From the NCBI GenBank assembly GCA_046733875.1, contig JBKPQB010000010.1:690-64689 (forward strand): a stretch of DNA of 64,000 bases, read 5' to 3'. Origin of the DNA: Acidobacteriota bacterium. Lineage in GTDB: Bacteria > Acidobacteriota > Vicinamibacteria > Vicinamibacterales > 2-12-FULL-66-21. The notes beneath the pieces were generated by a model. It was given only the letters and a program-made list of their open reading frames with translations. It had not been told where the DNA came from and made no database searches. This document shows, piece after piece, positions 35,803 to 61,531 of the stretch. Made by a program: the position numbers and the translations under genes. Each line of letters begins with the position of its first letter. The first letter of the stretch is position 1.

Positions 35803-36837
35803 ATGAAACGATTGACCGATTACGCAGCCTGCGCTGGTTGAGCGAGCAAACTCGCCGCAGGCGAGCTCGCCCAGGTGCTGGGTGCCTTGTCCGTCCCGTC
35901 CGATCCTCGCGTGCTGGTCGACTACCGCACGGCGGACGATGCGGGTGTGTACAGGCTCGATGACACGCGGGCGCTCGTGCAGACGGTCGATTTCTTCACG
36001 CCCATCGTGGACGATGCGTGGACGTACGGGAGGATTGCTGCCGCCAACGCGCTGTCGGACGTGTATGCGATGGGCGGACGGCCGTTGACGGCCCTCGCGA
36101 TAGCGGGTTTTCCCAGAGATGCGGAGCCGTCGCTGCTCGGCGAGATCTTCCGCGGCGGCCTGGAGGTCCTGCAGGCCGCCCACGTGGCGCTCCTTGGTGG
36201 TCACACGGTGCAGGACGCCGAAATCAAGTTCGGCTACGCCGTCACGGGGGAGATCGATCCGGAGCGGATCTGGACGAATGCCGGCGCGCAGGCCGGCGAT
36301 CGTCTGATCCTCACGAAACCGATCGGCACCGGCGTCATCGGGACGGCGATCAAGTTCGAGCGGGCGCCAGCCGACGCAGTCGACGCCGCGATCGAGTCGA
36401 TGACCACGCTCAACCGCGCGGCGGCGGATGCGCTCGCGAGCTTGCCTCGAAGCGTCGTGCACGCGTGTACGGACATCACCGGCTTCGGCGTCATCGGGCA
36501 CGCGACGGAGATGGCCAACGCCAGCGGCTGCTCGATCGAGATCGCTGTGGACGCAGTTCCGCTGCTTCCCGGCGCGCTCGATCTCGTGGAGCGCAACACG
36601 CCGGGCGGAGGGCGGACCAACCGCGAGCATTTCAGCGGCGCGCTCGCGACTGATTATGGCGGTGATGCCCGGCGGGAGCAGTTGCTGTTCGATCCGCAGA
36701 CCTCGGGTGGTCTCCTGGCCTCCATTGCACCATCAGCGGTGGCCGAGGCAATCGCGGCATTGTCCGCATCAGGGGCCGGCGCGTGGATTGTTGGTGAGGT
36801 GACGGTGCGTGGGACGCAGGCCTTGCGGTTGCGCTGA
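35803..36837 (+). CDS. selD: Selenophosphate synthetase, itself a selenoprotein (UGA at codon 13, 35839-35841)
   Basis: ATG 35803 reads MKRLTDYAACAG-U-ASKL, in frame with the 35875 ORF (DDAGVY, QTVDFFTP, NALSDVYAMGG, LGGHT, TDITGFG, DPQTSGGLL). The UGA sits at the catalytic Cys/Sec of the U-x-x-K motif. Confidence 0.95.
35842..35870 (+). other. Putative bacterial SECIS hairpin of selD
   Basis: GCGAG-CAAA-CTCGCC-GCA-GGCGAG-CTCGC directly after the UGA. The upper stem CTCGCC/GGCGAG has a G-containing loop starting 16 nt after the UGA. Confidence 0.7.
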
Positions 36838-55244: not shown

Positions 55245-56639
55245 CTAGGCCTCCGGTTGCCGGTCGAGCCGCTTCAGCTTCTCGATCAGCGTCGTGCGCT
55301 TCAGATTCAGCAGGCGCGCCGCCCGTACCTTGTTCCCCTGCGTCCGTTCGAGGGAGCGCTTGATCAACGTCAGCTCGATCCCTTCCATGTACCGCTCGAG
55401 ATCGATCCCCTCGTCGGGAAACCATTCGTCGGTGCCGTCGCCGGTATTCGGCAGCGCCTGCACTTCCGGTCCGAGATCGTCGATCTCGATCTGCGCACGC
55501 CCCTGACTGAACGTGAGCGCGCGTTCGACGACGTTTTCCAATTGACGGACGTTGCCCGGCCACGAGTACGCCATCAGACGCCGCATCGCCTCCTGCGACA
55601 TCGTTACCGTCCGGGGCGGCACGTACTCGGCGCCGAGCTTCTGCAGGAAATGCTGCACGAGCAGCGGGATGTCTTCGCGGCGCTCGCGCAGCGGCGGAAG
55701 CTGCACGGGGATGACGTTGAGACGGTAGTACAAATCCTCGCGGAAGGAGCCGTCCGCGACCATCTTCGACAGTTCCGAGTGTGTGGCCGCGATGATGCGG
55801 ACGTCGATCTTGACGGTATGTGAATCGCCCACCCGTTCGAACTCGCGCTCCTGCAGGACACGCAGGAGCTTCGCCTGGAGCGCGGGGCTCATGGTCGCCA
55901 CCTCGTCGAGGAAGAGCGTTCCCTTGTGCGCCTGCTCGAGCCTACCCTGCCGTGCGCCGACCGCGCCCGTGAACGCGCCGCGGACATGACCGAACAGCTC
56001 CGCTTCGAGCAGCGTTTCGGGAATCGCGCTGCAGTTGATCGCGACGAACCTGTTCGCGCGCCGCGAGCTGTTGTGATGGATTGCGCGCGCCGCAAGCTCC
56101 TTGCCCGTTCCCGTTTCGCCCGTGATGAGGACCGTGCTCGATGTGCCGGCCACGGTCTCGAGCAGTTGAAACAGGTTGCGCATCGCGCGGCTGCGCCCGA
56201 CGAGACCGTCGATGCGATAGCGCTCCTCGAGCTGCGATCGCAGGTACGCGTTCTCCGATCGGAGCCGCCGCTGCTCGAGCGCGGAGCGGAGCACGTGCAG
56301 CAGCGCGTCGAACTGGAACGGCTTCGTGATGAAGTCGGCCGCGCCCTGCTTGATCGCGTCGACGGCGTCCTTCACGGTGCCAAACCCCGTGATGATGATC
56401 GCGATGATGTCGGGATAGCGCTCGAGGGCCGCGTCGAGGACTGCCCGGCCGTCCACGCCGGGCAGCCGGAGGTCCGTGATGATGATGTCGAACGCGAAGT
56501 CGGCGAGGCGCGCGAGGGCGTCTTCGCCGCTCGATGCCTGCTCGACGAGGAAGCCGTGATCTGCCAGCCGCTCCGCAATCGCTTCCCGCAGCGCGGCCTC
56601 GTCGTCGACGAGGAGCAGATGTTTCGCGTTTTCAGCCAT
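55245..56639 (-). CDS. Sigma54-dependent response regulator (REC-AAA+-HTH) with FleQ/FlrA-like HTH
   Basis: VDDE...TDLRLPG receiver, GETGTGKE, GAFTGA, LFLDE, WPGNVRQLEN, C-terminal AARLLNLKRTTLIEKLKR. Confidence 0.95.
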   Translation of the reverse strand: MAENAKHLLLVDDEAALREAIAERLADHGFLVEQASSGEDALARLADFAFDIIITDLRLPGVDGRAVLDAALERYPDIIAIIITGFGTVKDAVDAIKQGAADFITKPFQFDALLHVLRSALEQRRLRSENAYLRSQLEERYRIDGLVGRSRAMRNLFQLLETVAGTSSTVLITGETGTGKELAARAIHHNSSRRANRFVAINCSAIPETLLEAELFGHVRGAFTGAVGARQGRLEQAHKGTLFLDEVATMSPALQAKLLRVLQEREFERVGDSHTVKIDVRIIAATHSELSKMVADGSFREDLYYRLNVIPVQLPPLRERREDIPLLVQHFLQKLGAEYVPPRTVTMSQEAMRRLMAYSWPGNVRQLENVVERALTFSQGRAQIEIDDLGPEVQALPNTGDGTDEWFPDEGIDLERYMEGIELTLIKRSLERTQGNKVRAARLLNLKRTTLIEKLKRLDRQPEA

Positions 56640-57383: not shown

Positions 57384-57518
57384 GCCGTTTTCGTCCTCGT
57401 GTCTGCGCTGTCCTGCCCGTGCGTGCACAGGTCAACTCACAACTAACTGCCTTTGCACCATCAACTTACAATCACGCAGCTCATCCGGCTTGTCAGTTCT
57501 GTGCTTTCGTTTCGATTC

Positions 57519-57534
57519 TGGTACCAGCGTTGCG
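57519..57534 (+). promoter_or_regulatory. Sigma54 (-24/-12) promoter of the fliA-like gene
   Basis: TGGTACCAGCGTTGCG with GG and TTGC at consensus spacing. SD AAGGAG and ATG 57566 lie downstream. Confidence 0.65.
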
Positions 57535-57565
57535 GTTGGGGCGCCTCGCCAACACAAGGAGCCCC

Positions 57566-58486
57566 ATGCATCGTCAGCCTCTCGTCGCCCGTCAGCGTGA
57601 ACGAATTGCCGCCGGCTTGCCGTTCGTAGAGTCGCTCGCCCGGCGTGTCGCCTCCTCGATGCCGCACTCGATCGAGTTGGGAGATCTGGTCCAGGACGGC
57701 ATGCTCGGTCTGATCGACGCCGCGTACCGGTTCGACGAGGCTCGGGGCATCAAGTTCGAGACCTTCGCGGAGCGCCGCGTGCGCGGCGCCATGATCGACG
57801 CCCTCCGCCGCGACGCCTGGCCGCGCGGGGTGCGGCGGCAGCGGCGCGAGCTCGAAGCCGCCCGCGAGGAGCTGCGCCGCGAGCTTGGCGCCGAGCCGTC
57901 GCTCGCCGATCTGGCGGCGCGTGTCGGATCCGATGAAGCCCGTCTCGGCCGGACGATCGTCCGCATCAACACCATCGAGTCGACGTCGCCGCTCTCCGCC
58001 GGCGAAAACCTCGACGGGTCGACGCTGCCGGCGGCGCTCGTTCCGTCAGAGCCGCCGTCTCCGGATCGTTCGTACGAGGAACGCGAGGTCCGCGATCGCA
58101 TCCGCGCCGCGATTGCGTCGCTGCCGCCCCGTGAACGCAAGGTCATCGCGCTCTACTACTACGGTGAAGCGACGATGAAGCAGATTGGTGGGGAGATTGG
58201 GGTCAACGAGTCGCGCGTCTCGCAGCTCCACGCGCGTGCGATTCAGCGGCTGCGCAAGGCGCTTGGCTCCGAGGGCGACGATGCGCGTGCGCTGCGTCCG
58301 GCGATTCTTTCCTTCGAGCAGACGATGAAGCGGCTGAAGATGGCGAAGTCGGACATGACGCCGTCCTCGGCGCGGACGCCCGCCTCCGGCGTGGTGCTCG
58401 CGTACAAACAGCCGGCAGCGAAGGCACCTTCGGTACCGCCGGCGGCCAAACACGCGGGGCGCAGCCGGATCGCGGCGGCGCGATAG
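57566..58486 (+). CDS. fliA: FliA/WhiG-family (sigma28) RNA polymerase sigma factor
   Basis: DLVQDGMLGLIDAAYRFD, FETFAERRVRGAMIDALR, TMKQIGGEIGVNESRVSQLH, plus a ~70-aa C-terminal extension. Confidence 0.88.
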   Translation: MHRQPLVARQRERIAAGLPFVESLARRVASSMPHSIELGDLVQDGMLGLIDAAYRFDEARGIKFETFAERRVRGAMIDALRRDAWPRGVRRQRRELEAAREELRRELGAEPSLADLAARVGSDEARLGRTIVRINTIESTSPLSAGENLDGSTLPAALVPSEPPSPDRSYEEREVRDRIRAAIASLPPRERKVIALYYYGEATMKQIGGEIGVNESRVSQLHARAIQRLRKALGSEGDDARALRPAILSFEQTMKRLKMAKSDMTPSSARTPASGVVLAYKQPAAKAPSVPPAAKHAGRSRIAAAR

Positions 58487-58579: not shown

Positions 58580-60106
58580 TCACAGAAGGATATCCCGCGC
58601 CGTTCGCAGCAGATCCCTGAGGCGGAACGGCTTCGCGAGCCAGCGGCAGCCCGTCTCTTCGAGGAATCGCTCCGCCTCCGTGCCTGCAACGTCGCCGGTG
58701 ACGAACAGGATGCGCCGCGTCAGATCGGGCGCGTCCCGTTCGAGCGTGCGGTAGAACGTCATCCCGTCAACGCGCGGCATCTTCAAATCGCAGATGATCA
58801 GATCGTACGAACGGCGCTGCGTGTGCTGCAGCGCCTCGTCGCCGTCCCCCGCGCGATCGACGACATACCCTGCATCGACGAGGGATTCGGCCACCGCCGC
58901 GCCGAGCGCCGCTTCATCTTCGACGACCAGGACCACAGAGCCCTTCGTCGCGTCCTCGTGCCGATCGGCGGGCCGCGGCAGCGGCGGCTTCACGGGCCCG
59001 TCGCCTACGGGTAACGCGACGTAGAACGATGCGCCGCGGCCGGGCTCAGACTTGACGCTGATCCTGCCGCCATGCTCCTGCACGATCGCGTACGCGACGG
59101 TGAGGCCAAGGCCGGTGCCCTTGCCAACTTCCTTGGTAGTGAAAAACGGATCGAAGATGCGTGGCCGCACATCTTCCGGTACACCAGGCCCGTCATCGTT
59201 CACTTCGAGAACCACCGCATCACCGTCGAGGTCGTGCCAGGTACGAAGGATCAGCGTTCCCCGGCCGTTGACGCTGAGCATCGCCTGTTCGGCGTTGATG
59301 ATGAGGTTCAGGAGCACCTGCTGGATCTGATGCGGGTCGGCGAACACCAGGGGCAGTCCGGCAGGCAGCGCCTCGAGGATGTTGATGTTGCTCAGGCGCT
59401 GTTCGTACGAGCGAAGCGCGATCGTCTCGCGGACGACCTGGTTGAGGTCCACCATCGCGCGCGTGGTGTGGCGCTTGCGCGCAAACGTTAGGAGGTTGCG
59501 GACGATCTTTGCCGCGCGCTCGGATTCACTGAGGATTGTTTCGAGACCGCGGCGCGTCGGGTCGTCGAGGGACCGCTGGGAGAGCCGTTCGGCCCACATC
59601 AGGATCGTCGCAAGCGGGTTGTTCAGCTCATGCGCGACGCCGGAGATCGTCTGCCCGAGCGCAGCGAGCTTCTCCGCCTGCAGCAGCTGATGGTAGAGAT
59701 CGCGCGCCTGATCTTCGAGGCGCTTGCGTTCCGTGACGTCGCGCATCAGCGCATCGACGCGCAGCCGCCCGGCGTCGTCGCGCTCGGCATGGGCTGTCAC
59801 TTCGACCCAGATCGGCACGCGATCCTCGCGCCGCAGGCGCATCACGTAATCGGTGACCGCGCCGTCGCGCTCGAGCCGCTCGAGAAAGCCGGTGCGCGCC
59901 TGCGGGTCGACGAAGCGTTCGGGCGCGAACGGCAGCAGGTATTCCTGCGGCGTTTCGGCCGCGAGACCGAAGATCAGCTTCAAGTGTGGATTCGCTGAGA
60001 GCGTGGTGCTCTCGGGACCGCAAATCGTACCGATGTACACGCCCTCATGGACCGCTTCGAAGAGCCGTGCGAACGCCAGGCCCGCGTCCGACAGCTCGGG
60101 CGTCAT
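58580..60106 (-). CDS. Cytoplasmic hybrid histidine kinase (PAS-HisKA-HATPase-REC)
   Basis: PAS/PAC (RDVTERK), AHELNNPL, NLIINAEQA, DDGPG, FDPFFTTKEVGKGTGLGL, receiver DLIICDLKMP. No TM segment. Confidence 0.95.
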   Translation of the reverse strand: MTPELSDAGLAFARLFEAVHEGVYIGTICGPESTTLSANPHLKLIFGLAAETPQEYLLPFAPERFVDPQARTGFLERLERDGAVTDYVMRLRREDRVPIWVEVTAHAERDDAGRLRVDALMRDVTERKRLEDQARDLYHQLLQAEKLAALGQTISGVAHELNNPLATILMWAERLSQRSLDDPTRRGLETILSESERAAKIVRNLLTFARKRHTTRAMVDLNQVVRETIALRSYEQRLSNINILEALPAGLPLVFADPHQIQQVLLNLIINAEQAMLSVNGRGTLILRTWHDLDGDAVVLEVNDDGPGVPEDVRPRIFDPFFTTKEVGKGTGLGLTVAYAIVQEHGGRISVKSEPGRGASFYVALPVGDGPVKPPLPRPADRHEDATKGSVVLVVEDEAALGAAVAESLVDAGYVVDRAGDGDEALQHTQRRSYDLIICDLKMPRVDGMTFYRTLERDAPDLTRRILFVTGDVAGTEAERFLEETGCRWLAKPFRLRDLLRTARDILL

Positions 60107-60687
60107 TTCCCTCGCGCGACGGGTGGCGTCGGCGTCATCGTCGGAAACGAGGACCGGTATTTGGTTTCGATTGCGGCTCGAATGTCCGCGATTCCGGTGC
60201 CTGCCGAGTGCATCTGCATCGCGTCACGCGCGACGTCCAGGCAGATCGCTCAACCCACTCCGTGCGGTTCCCAGGCGGTCGGACGTCCGCGCGGGTCGCG
60301 CGCTGCCACGAAGCAGTCGTCGTTGTGGCGATGGCCGCGTGACTCGCAGCCGCAGAAGCACGGCACGTGGCTGAGCACTTCGGGGTGCCTCGCGGCGAAC
60401 GCGTAGACCGCCCGTACGACTTCCATCGGCCTCGCGGGTGCGAACGGCGTCATCGGTAGCGGCGGGATGTCGCCGTCCGTCAGCTCGATCGCGTGCTGCG
60501 GCGCGTTGATCCCGGTCTGCGTTGACGAGGGAGCCGTCTCCCGTGCGCTCGGCTGCTGTGCAGCTGGCGCGGCCTGCGGCTGTGAGGGCGGTGTCTGGGC
60601 CGGCGATGCGGAAGGCGAGCTGCAGCCGGCAAAAGCGGCGGTCAGCACCGCAGCTGCGAGCCCACACGAGATCCCCGCCCTCGACAT
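60103..60687 (-). CDS. PCYCGC-family lipoprotein, predicted selenoprotein (UGA at 60250-60252, UxxC), 194 aa
   Basis: Lipobox FAGC and PCFCGC...HNDDCF. Read-through of the UGA gives HGVG-U-AICLDVARDAMQMHSAGTGIADIRAAIETKYRSSFPTMTPTPPVARGK-stop, whose TGA (60103-60105) overlaps the kinase ATG. Confidence 0.85.
60210..60249 (-). other. Putative bacterial SECIS hairpin of the PCYCGC gene
   Basis: mRNA after the UGA: GCG-AUCUG-CCUGGA-CGUCGCG-CGUGA-CGCGAUG-CAGAU-GC, a two-tier stem with a G-containing apical loop about 21 nt from the UGA. Confidence 0.55.
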
Positions 60688-60718
60688 GGGCCAATCTTAG
60701 CATCGATAATCGGGTCCC

Positions 60719-61531
60719 ATGTTCGATCCCGCACTGCTGCAGGGCCGCGTTGCTGTGATCACCGGCGGCGGCACCGGCATCGGACTCGCGACCGCGCGCA
60801 GGCTGGGTACGCTCGGCGCCCGCGTCGTGATTGCCAGCCGCCAGGCGGAGCACCTGGAGCACGGCTGCGCAGTGCTCCGCGAATCGGGCGTCGACGCGCT
60901 TGCGGTGCAGCTCGACGTCCGCAAGCCGGAGCAGGTGGACGAGATGATCGAGCGGACCGTACGGCATTTCGGCGGGCCCGACATCCTGATCAACAACGCT
61001 GCGGGCAACTTTATCTGCCGCGCCGAGGATCTGTCGCCGAACGGATGGAACGCGGTCGTGTCCATCGTCCTCAACGGGAGCTTCTACTGCGCGCGCGCGG
61101 TCGGACAGTACATGATCGCCTCGCGCCGCGGCGGATCGATCGTGTCGATCCTCGCGAATTACATCTGGACGGGGAGTCCCGGGACGATTCATTCGGCGGC
61201 GGCCAAGGCTGGTGTGATGTCGATGACGCAGACGCTTGCGGTCGAATGGGCTCCACACGGGATCCGCGTGAACGCCGTCGCGCCCGGACCGATCGAATCG
61301 GCGGGCGCCGCGCGGCAGTTGTGGAGCTCGCAGGCGGACGTCGATCGCATCACTGCGATGGTGCCGCTCGGCCGCTGGGGAAAACCGCACGAAGTTGCCG
61401 ATGCGGTCGCGTTTCTCGTGTCGCCGCTCGCCTCCTTCATCACCGGAGAAGTGCTCACGATTGACGGCGGTGCTCGCCTGACCGCTGGATCGTTCGGATT
61501 TCTCGACATCGGCTCCATTCCCCGCCGCTAA
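60719..61531 (+). CDS. SDR oxidoreductase, 2,4-dienoyl-CoA reductase-like
   Basis: TGGGTGIG, NNAAGNF, HSAAAKAG, IRVNAVAPGPI, PLGRWG, ITGEVLTIDGG. Confidence 0.88.
   Translation: MFDPALLQGRVAVITGGGTGIGLATARRLGTLGARVVIASRQAEHLEHGCAVLRESGVDALAVQLDVRKPEQVDEMIERTVRHFGGPDILINNAAGNFICRAEDLSPNGWNAVVSIVLNGSFYCARAVGQYMIASRRGGSIVSILANYIWTGSPGTIHSAAAKAGVMSMTQTLAVEWAPHGIRVNAVAPGPIESAGAARQLWSSQADVDRITAMVPLGRWGKPHEVADAVAFLVSPLASFITGEVLTIDGGARLTAGSFGFLDIGSIPRR

Follow-up and report, generated by a model that had tools for sequence, protein, structure and literature searches.

We identified a gene that most probably encodes a selenoprotein of 194 residues on the minus strand of a 64,000-nucleotide (nt) window from a soil metagenome-assembled genome (MAG, 73% complete) of a Vicinamibacterales bacterium (Acidobacteriota); all coordinates below refer to this window unless another contig is named. 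In the reading that we favour, and to which we assign a probability of about 0.82, the protein is a member of the PCYCGC/CYCXC family, an in-frame UGA is decoded as selenocysteine (Sec, U) under the direction of a selenocysteine insertion sequence (SECIS) located in the coding sequence, the product is exported and acts as an oxidoreductase, and the gene overlaps the start of a core histidine kinase gene in an ordinary stop/start arrangement. The evidence that carries this reading is the alternation of UGA and Cys codons at one alignment column in related genomes, together with a hairpin that is fully paired in every Sec form and in no Cys form.

The in-frame UGA, its hairpin and the selenocysteine machinery

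In the list of open reading frames (ORFs), the gene appears as a minus-strand ORF of 145 amino acids (60250–60687) that stops at the TGA at 60250–60252. As described in the initial annotation of this DNA, the frame does not end there: when the TGA is read as U, 48 further codons follow in frame (...WEPHGVG-U-AICLDVARDAM...) up to a final TGA at 60103–60105, which shares three bases with the ATGA at 60103–60106 that contains the kinase start codon (ATG, 60104–60106). The closest public gene calls, which are named only as 'hypothetical' or 'PCYCGC motif' proteins, are 140–147 residues long and cover 75% of the query, that is, they end at the TGA. The features of the gene and of its surroundings are collected in Table 1.

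Table 1. Positions, strands and supporting evidence of the features discussed, in window coordinates.
Feature	Position	Strand	Basis
Full selenoprotein gene, PCYCGC/CYCXC family (predicted)	60103–60687	−	194 codons plus stop, Sec as residue 146; read-through translation, PF13798
In-frame UGA, predicted Sec (U146 of U-A-I-C)	60250–60252	−	TGA/Cys column in relatives; independent DNA contigs
Putative SECIS element	60209–60243	−	core hairpin CGUCGCG-CGUGA-CGCGAUG (60217–60235) plus 3-bp lower stem
PCFCGC motif, residues 109–114	60346–60363	−	P109, C110, C112, G113 and C114 invariant in the 42-sequence alignment A1
Putative signal peptide, lipobox-like AFAG-C22	60622–60687	−	read from the sequence; homologues with lipobox or membrane anchor
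ATGA stop/start overlap, selenoprotein gene/kinase gene	60103–60106	−	sequence; shared by the same-genus genome and by several close relatives, including one Cys form (L018/L053)
Soluble hybrid histidine kinase, 508 amino acids	58580–60106	−	PAS-like N-terminus, HisKA, HATPase_c, REC (Pfam)
FliA/WhiG-family sigma factor gene, convergent	57419–58486	+	TIGR02479, 194.2 bits against a cut-off of 189.6
Short-chain dehydrogenase (SDR) gene, divergent	60719–61531	+	adh_short_C2, 197 bits; 31 nt from the selenoprotein ATG
SelD (selenophosphate synthetase), Sec at U21	35809–36738	+	TIGR00476, 359.3 bits; one in-frame TGA, codon 35839–35841

We compared the codon at position 146 in two samples of loci that overlap in part. 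A six-frame search of 61 related genomes with the read-through protein gave a match in 34, and the best 30 loci were analysed; the second sample was drawn from named GTDB genomes (380 relatives), with the best 80 loci, all from Acidobacteriota and mostly labelled Vicinamibacterales, being analysed. The column contained TGA in 21 and Cys in 9 of the 30 loci of the first sample, with the sequence 3′ of the column conserved in all of them, and TGA in 36 and Cys in 44 of the 80 loci of the second. Among the loci compared, no homologue ended at this column, and neither a residue other than Cys nor another stop codon (TAA or TAG) was found there in the 30-locus or the 80-locus sample; the UGA thus occupies a Cys position, as had been proposed. 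The 48 codons past the TGA are conserved, with C149, D151 and G163 invariant in the 42-sequence alignment.

The TGA itself was compared with independent assemblies. A DNA contig from another soil-metagenome study showed 0 differences from the window over 60208–60370, with the TGA intact, and a contig of a ~90%-identical relative from a further soil study showed 15 differences, none of them at the TGA. Because the codon is unchanged in DNA contigs of two other soil studies, a sequencing or assembly error at 60250–60252, which the initial annotation had raised as a possible objection, is excluded. The summed contig depth in the soil-metagenome sets rises 3–5-fold over only two stretches, 60197–60250 (SECIS) and 60332–60385 (PCFCGC motif), which fits nucleotide conservation among co-occurring relatives. 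Many short contigs of related strains are near-identical over these two stretches. Contigs from RNA libraries cover 60328–60513 and 60287–60515, along with short pieces, and none of them spans the UGA or the gene junction.

The hairpin initially noticed behind the UGA is present, and its core stem starts 14 nt downstream. Numbered from the U of the UGA, bases 17–23 (CGUCGCG, 60229–60235) pair with bases 29–35 (CGCGAUG, 60217–60223) around the loop CGUGA (60224–60228), with GU in the apical loop, and 60241–60243 pair with 60209–60211 to form the lower stem of 3 bp. All seven pairs of the core stem are present in every Sec locus of both samples (21/21 and 36/36) and in no Cys locus (0/9 and 0/44), the Cys loci forming just 2–6 of the seven. 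Three Sec loci carry a compensatory double change (G23C with C29G, turning G-C into C-G) by which the pair is kept, and in L024/L085 both loop-closing bases are altered such that an extra A-U pair is formed. RNAalifold folds the Sec set into exactly this hairpin at −11.06, compared with −2.02 for the Cys set. The constraint extends to codon choice: the +8 codon for Arg reads CGT in 19/21 Sec loci vs. 0/9 Cys loci, the Ala codon at +10 is GCG in 21/21 vs. 2/9, and the peptide DVARDAM is retained in 33/37 Sec rows of the alignment vs. 2/44 Cys rows, where the two Cys rows use other codons and have no hairpin. This distribution is the signature of a putative RNA element that is needed only where the codon is UGA, and the comparison shows codon choice and the peptide DVARDAM to be frozen in Sec forms by the predicted SECIS within the coding sequence.

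When the Sec or Cys state is placed on a tree of the adjacent kinase (72 rows, unrooted), at least eight changes are required, five of which are forced by well-supported branches. The recurrence of the same hairpin sequence in distant Sec clades suggests that Sec is ancestral and was replaced repeatedly by Cys. Taken together, these comparisons strongly support the decoding of the UGA at 60250–60252 as selenocysteine.

The lineage itself uses Sec, in agreement with the initial claim that the organism makes selenoproteins. The Sec-containing SelD that had been noticed in the window is real (...AACAG-U-ASK...; Table 1), and selB is present on contig C1 of the MAG (349 bits). A genome of the same genus (G001, 100% complete) encodes selA (539 bits), a tRNA-Sec of 98 nt and a Sec-containing SelD, and its Sec-form orthologue of the PCYCGC gene is 78% identical and has the identical ATGA overlap. 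We found selA in 54 of the 61 relatives and in 19 of the 21 genomes with Sec forms, the two misses being genomes of 73% and 84% completeness; Cys forms are carried by three genomes (94–98% complete) in which selA was not found. SelD is a selenoprotein in the window, in G001 and in one further genome, G034. In another genome, G021, both SelD and the PCYCGC protein are Cys forms, yet selA and tRNA-Sec are kept, which looks as though Sec had been exchanged for Cys in part, and in a coordinated way, in this one lineage.

Three candidates for the remaining Sec genes of the MAG were rejected. An Rfam tRNA-Sec match at 4–93 of contig C10 (6–95 of L001), with 50.6 bits against a gathering threshold of 47, was identified by ARAGORN as a tRNA-Ser with the anticodon UGA; this gene lies ~600 nt upstream of the start of the window, the syntenic gene of G001 scores the same 50.6 bits, and such a false positive could mislead automated selC calls. 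The ARAGORN call 'tRNA-SeC(tca)' on the complement of 18279–18357 of contig C28 is 79 nt long; its D arm is weak, and its anticodon stem contains a mismatch. This call is probably spurious and was not accepted because of its lack of resemblance to the tRNA-Sec of 98 nt in the same-genus genome, a blastn search with which gave no match in the MAG. The ORF upstream of selB, considered as a candidate for selA, is RNase R.

Family, predicted structure and likely role of the protein

With the TGA read as Cys, the protein matches Pfam PF13798 (PCYCGC) with 93.3 bits (threshold 25; E = 1.9 × 10−26) over residues 88–188, corresponding to positions 51–151 of the 153 positions of the profile. The match runs across the TGA, and the assignment to the PCYCGC family made in the initial annotation therefore holds. 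The only NCBIfam match of the read-through protein is NF041379 ('OS_HP4_CYCXC, CYCXC family (seleno)protein'), of which the protein is, judging by its score, a relative from a near subfamily rather than a trusted member. The suspicion that Sec forms of this family might already be annotated was correct, as seen from the name of NF041379 and from two review tables, one of which lists a CYCXC family protein (OS_HP4) with PF13798, the motif UxxC and one Sec (PMC13188914), the other entering OS_HP4 with the UxxC motif only (PMC9312934). Neither the 2007 Nucleic Acids Research paper nor the 2008 PLoS Genetics paper mentions OS_HP4 in its main text, and the primary description of OS_HP4 could not be traced; our literature search found no published mention of PCYCGC/OS_HP4 in Vicinamibacterales or of its linkage to a hybrid kinase. 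The Sec form of the PCYCGC family is thus already catalogued, and the gene described here adds a member or a near subfamily.

Read from the sequence, the N-terminus MSRAGISCGLAAAVLTAAFAG-C22 fits the lipobox pattern and resembles a lipoprotein signal peptide. It is followed by a low-complexity linker rich in Pro, Ala, Ser and Gln that extends to about residue 75; among the aligned homologues, some have a lipobox and the others an N-terminal membrane anchor. A PCYCGC lipoprotein is also reported from Parageobacillus (PMC13068155). The exported lipoprotein of the initial annotation has a plausible lipobox signal peptide. The product would be exported and tethered to the membrane through the lipobox Cys22 and the long Pro/Ala-rich linker, and its folded domain (residues ~75–190) would present six invariant Cys/Sec and two invariant His.

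Besides the PCFCGC motif, the residues H119, C125, H142 and C149 are invariant in the 42 sequences and column 146 contains either Cys or Sec, such that the later His and CxxC of the PCYCGC family are present as H142 and U146-x-x-C149. AlphaFold2, run with the 42-sequence alignment, predicts a helical domain with pLDDT >90 at residues ~75–190 and <75 for residues 1–70. In this model U146 lies between the helices 141–145 and 147–161, that is, at the junction before helix 147–161. The N-terminal end of a helix is the usual location of redox-active CxxC motifs. Because U146-x-x-C149 takes this usual place, we read the protein, with moderate confidence, as a selenol/thiol oxidoreductase that works outside the cytoplasm and attacks through its Sec residue; the CxCxC/His cluster probably binds a metal or contains additional disulfides. 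The main alternative for the function is a purely metal-binding role of the PCYCGC protein. A sequence search of the PDB with the protein returned 0 matches.

Several observations weigh against the reading set out at the beginning. Neither selA (best match 44 bits) nor a convincing tRNA-Sec was found in the MAG; their absence is not shown by this, because the MAG is 73% complete and merely 21 tRNAs were detected in total, and of the selA, selB and selC genes that the initial annotation had looked to for confirmation, selB is present, alongside the Sec-containing SelD, whereas the other two were not found. The energy of the hairpin is ordinary for G+C-rich DNA (minimum free energy −29.5 kcal/mol, z = 0.21, with 108 of 200 shuffled sequences folding at least as well), and its significance derives from the comparative data and not from thermodynamics. 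A search of the whole window against Rfam at the gathering threshold gave no match; of the SECIS search that had been suggested, it is the comparative alignment that revealed a hairpin, confined to Sec forms. The score against NF041379 (68 bits) is below the equivalog cut-off of 90. Foldseek returned nothing from the PDB at E ≤ 0.001 (best E = 1.4, the periplasmic domain of CcmH), and the best VIA-align match was a designed protein (Z = 5.5), followed at Z = 4.7 by CcmH, so that no fold match is clear. Selenium incorporation is read from sequence comparison and export from the sequence alone, the redox role solely from the position of the motif in a predicted model, and the overlap counts given below are approximate, since the kinase starts in the relatives were assigned by a script heuristic.

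The downstream kinase, the stop/start overlap and rival explanations

The kinase gene that follows the selenoprotein gene was described initially as a PAS hybrid kinase. Its HisKA (56 bits), HATPase_c (93.2 bits) and receiver (Response_reg, 78.8 bits) domains are confirmed, all scoring above the Pfam cut-off, whereas the PAS match (PAS_9, 22.2 bits) stays below the cut-off of 27. A kinase orthologue with 51–100% identity lies directly downstream of the PCYCGC gene on the same strand in 29/30 and 78/80 loci, and it is single-copy in 54 of the 61 relatives. The FliA/WhiG sigma factor gene is found downstream of the kinase on the opposite strand in 73/80 loci, and the SDR gene is the divergent upstream neighbour in 38/80. 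We checked 20 genomes that have the kinase and no PCYCGC match: there was no PCYCGC gene upstream of the kinase in any of them (20/20), and 13 have the divergent SDR gene directly next to the kinase, at a distance of 63–287 nt. Because the kinase elsewhere stands without a PCYCGC gene and with its own upstream region, the kinase is, on this comparison, a core single-copy gene of the order, and the PCYCGC gene an accessory gene placed between SDR and kinase.

Some further observations concern this neighbourhood. In two of the loci without a PCYCGC gene (L145 of G043 and L143 of G044), a P-type (E1-E2) ATPase gene on the same strand precedes the kinase (194.7 bits to the Pfam model in L145) and is followed by a very short hydrophobic ORF; this neighbour may suggest that the kinase belongs to a context related to metals. 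In L035 and L036 (G008 and G033), the kinase frame is continuous with that of the PCYCGC gene, and nothing but the terminal TGA divides the two (...PKPGAP-TGA-HLAEAYARLFEAAHEG...); a TTG 3 nt past the stop is the likely start of the kinase. In the window, the divergent start codons of the selenoprotein and SDR genes are 31 nt apart (60688–60718), so that the promoter of each gene must fall inside or against the other gene; a single sigma-70-like match near this gap (60681–60710, plus strand) points toward the SDR gene. The annotated ORF of the sigma factor gene, 355 residues, has an N-terminal extension of ~60 residues, and its start codon is provisional. A sigma-54-dependent response regulator gene (REC, AAA+, HTH; 55245–56639, minus strand) is located near the kinase gene.

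The persistence of this gene pair raises the possibility, which we consider unlikely but not negligible, that the PCYCGC protein is a functional partner of the kinase pathway, either as an extracytoplasmic redox or metal sensor or as a target whose level is tied to the kinase. The protein is rich in Cys and His, and its gene has stayed directly upstream of one kinase orthologue, at the frequencies given above, through at least eight switches between Sec and Cys. However, the kinase has no predicted membrane segment and a PAS-like start, which argues for a cytoplasmic protein, and the PCYCGC domain is predicted to lie outside, such that no direct contact would be expected; moreover, the kinase does without a PCYCGC gene in at least 20 relatives, and in a stable core region such as this one, with SDR and FliA synteny, adjacency may be inherited rather than functional.

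The initial annotation had gone further and interpreted the ATGA overlap as a selected selenium gate, in which only ribosomes that insert Sec reach the kinase start and the resulting kinase dosage reports selenium to the sigma-54/FliA circuit. We regard this as improbable. The geometry is as described, with the Sec UGA 147 nt upstream of the overlap and thus of the kinase start. A single purine-rich stretch, GAGGG, precedes the kinase ATG and ends 2–3 nt from that codon, no Shine-Dalgarno-like sequence before the kinase start is conserved among the overlapping relatives, and no sigma-70-like promoter was found on the minus strand between 58300 and 61000, with a consensus that may not suit Acidobacteriota. 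A precedent for such an effect also exists in the fdhF-Sec gene of Treponema primitia (PMC3892789). An overlap (ATGA, GTGA or TGATG) is somewhat more frequent in Sec forms than in Cys forms (9/36 vs. 5/44 loci, and 10/29 vs. 4/37 in the tree set), but this difference tracks phylogeny, because the overlap clusters in one clade. Within the 12-row clade of the kinase tree to which the window belongs, 11 rows are Sec forms; the single Cys form (L018/L053), the sister of a Sec form, keeps the identical ATGA. Most Sec loci, 27 of 36, are without the overlap: in 21, a spacer of 5–177 nt separates the stop codon, mostly TAA or TAG, from the kinase start, one has a gap of 1 nt, three have no assigned start, and in two no kinase follows. 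No association with the overlap emerged from five independent Sec/Cys contrasts on the kinase tree, an underpowered set, in which the overlap mostly remained unchanged when Sec and Cys were exchanged, and the kinase is retained with its own upstream region in many relatives that have no PCYCGC gene.

Because the overlap occurs with Cys forms too and is absent in most Sec forms, it is, as judged from these loci, a lineage-specific compaction of the operon and not a Sec-linked feature. Its conservation is accordingly partial, extending to the same-genus genome and several close relatives and not to the majority of Sec loci, and the coupling that had been singled out as the unusual part of the system is real in the sequence and ordinary in kind. 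A failure of Sec decoding may lower the synthesis of the kinase, through lost termination-reinitiation and possibly through transcriptional polarity. Such a reduction is plausible as a by-product, since ribosomes that end at UGA146 would stop 147 nt short of the kinase start, GAGGG, the one purine-rich stretch there, ends 2–3 nt from the ATG, and no sigma-70-like promoter was found on that strand; of a selected selenium sensor we see no sign in the sequences compared. There is only a slim chance that the accessory Sec/Cys lipoprotein is wired before the core PAS hybrid kinase in such a way that the efficiency of Sec decoding at the UGA sets the amount of kinase. If this were true, selenium status, and perhaps the redox or metal state of the envelope, would feed into the FliA/sigma-54 network, with recoding as the regulatory input.

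By far the least probable explanation is that the TGA is a true stop (of a 145-residue product or of a decaying gene), a sequencing error or the mark of another genetic code: gene callers do end there, with top database matches of 140–147 residues, and selA and selC were not found in the 73%-complete MAG, but the 48 downstream codons are conserved at the protein level in every TGA-bearing relative, with the profile matched up to position 151 of 153, the TGA alternates only with Cys, has a Sec-specific hairpin behind it and is identical in independent assemblies, and a general reassignment is contradicted by the terminator of the gene itself, which is TGA, and by the many relatives whose genes end in TGA, TAA or TAG.

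Significance and comparison with known systems

The immediate consequence of the selenoprotein reading is a corrected annotation, given that gene callers cut the protein at residue 145, both here and in many database entries, and thereby remove the UxxC centre and a third of the domain. The Sec loci also provide a clean, family-specific SECIS consensus, in which the RNA element freezes codons and peptide while the Cys relatives drift freely, and they document that Sec and Cys were exchanged repeatedly (at least eight changes on the kinase tree) in a single order of bacteria that are abundant in soil. The conserved PCYCGC-kinase-FliA neighbourhood could serve as a starting point for functional studies of a family whose role is unknown. 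No new kind of system is revealed by these findings, and the idea of a selenium gate remains an unsupported speculation.

Bacterial SECIS elements of the type known from E. coli fdhF are stem-loops that lie within the coding region a short distance past the UGA and have G and U in their apical loop. The putative element described here resembles them in its place within the coding sequence soon after the UGA, in the G and U of its loop and in being kept only together with the UGA; it differs from other bacterial SECIS elements in its family-specific, G+C-rich stem of 7 bp and its CGUGA pentaloop. As to the fold, the CcmH domain (PDB 2hl7 and 2kw0), a small helical, membrane-tethered periplasmic thiol-disulfide oxidoreductase with a CxxC motif, is the best natural structural match to the model (rank 1 in Foldseek, with the E value of 1.4 reported above; VIA-align Z = 4.7, rmsd 3.3 over 74 residues). 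This match lies within the noise range of the tools and has no sequence similarity behind it, and we take it as a lead only.

For the selenium-gate idea, the only documented mechanism of a similar kind is that of T. primitia fdhF-Sec, for which PMC3892789 describes selenium-dependent transcription beyond the Sec codon and a coupling to translation. There, failed translation of the Sec codon can lower downstream expression, but the effect concerns the 3′ part of the selenoprotein gene itself, whereas in the window it would concern a separate downstream kinase gene and is hypothetical. The closest known relative of the protein is the OS_HP4/CYCXC family (NF041379, PF13798), which, according to the review tables cited above, shares with it the common domain, the CxCxC motif and a UxxC with one Sec. 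The protein described here differs from that family in scoring below its cut-off (68 vs. 90 bits), in its origin from soil Vicinamibacterales and in the linkage of its gene to a hybrid kinase.

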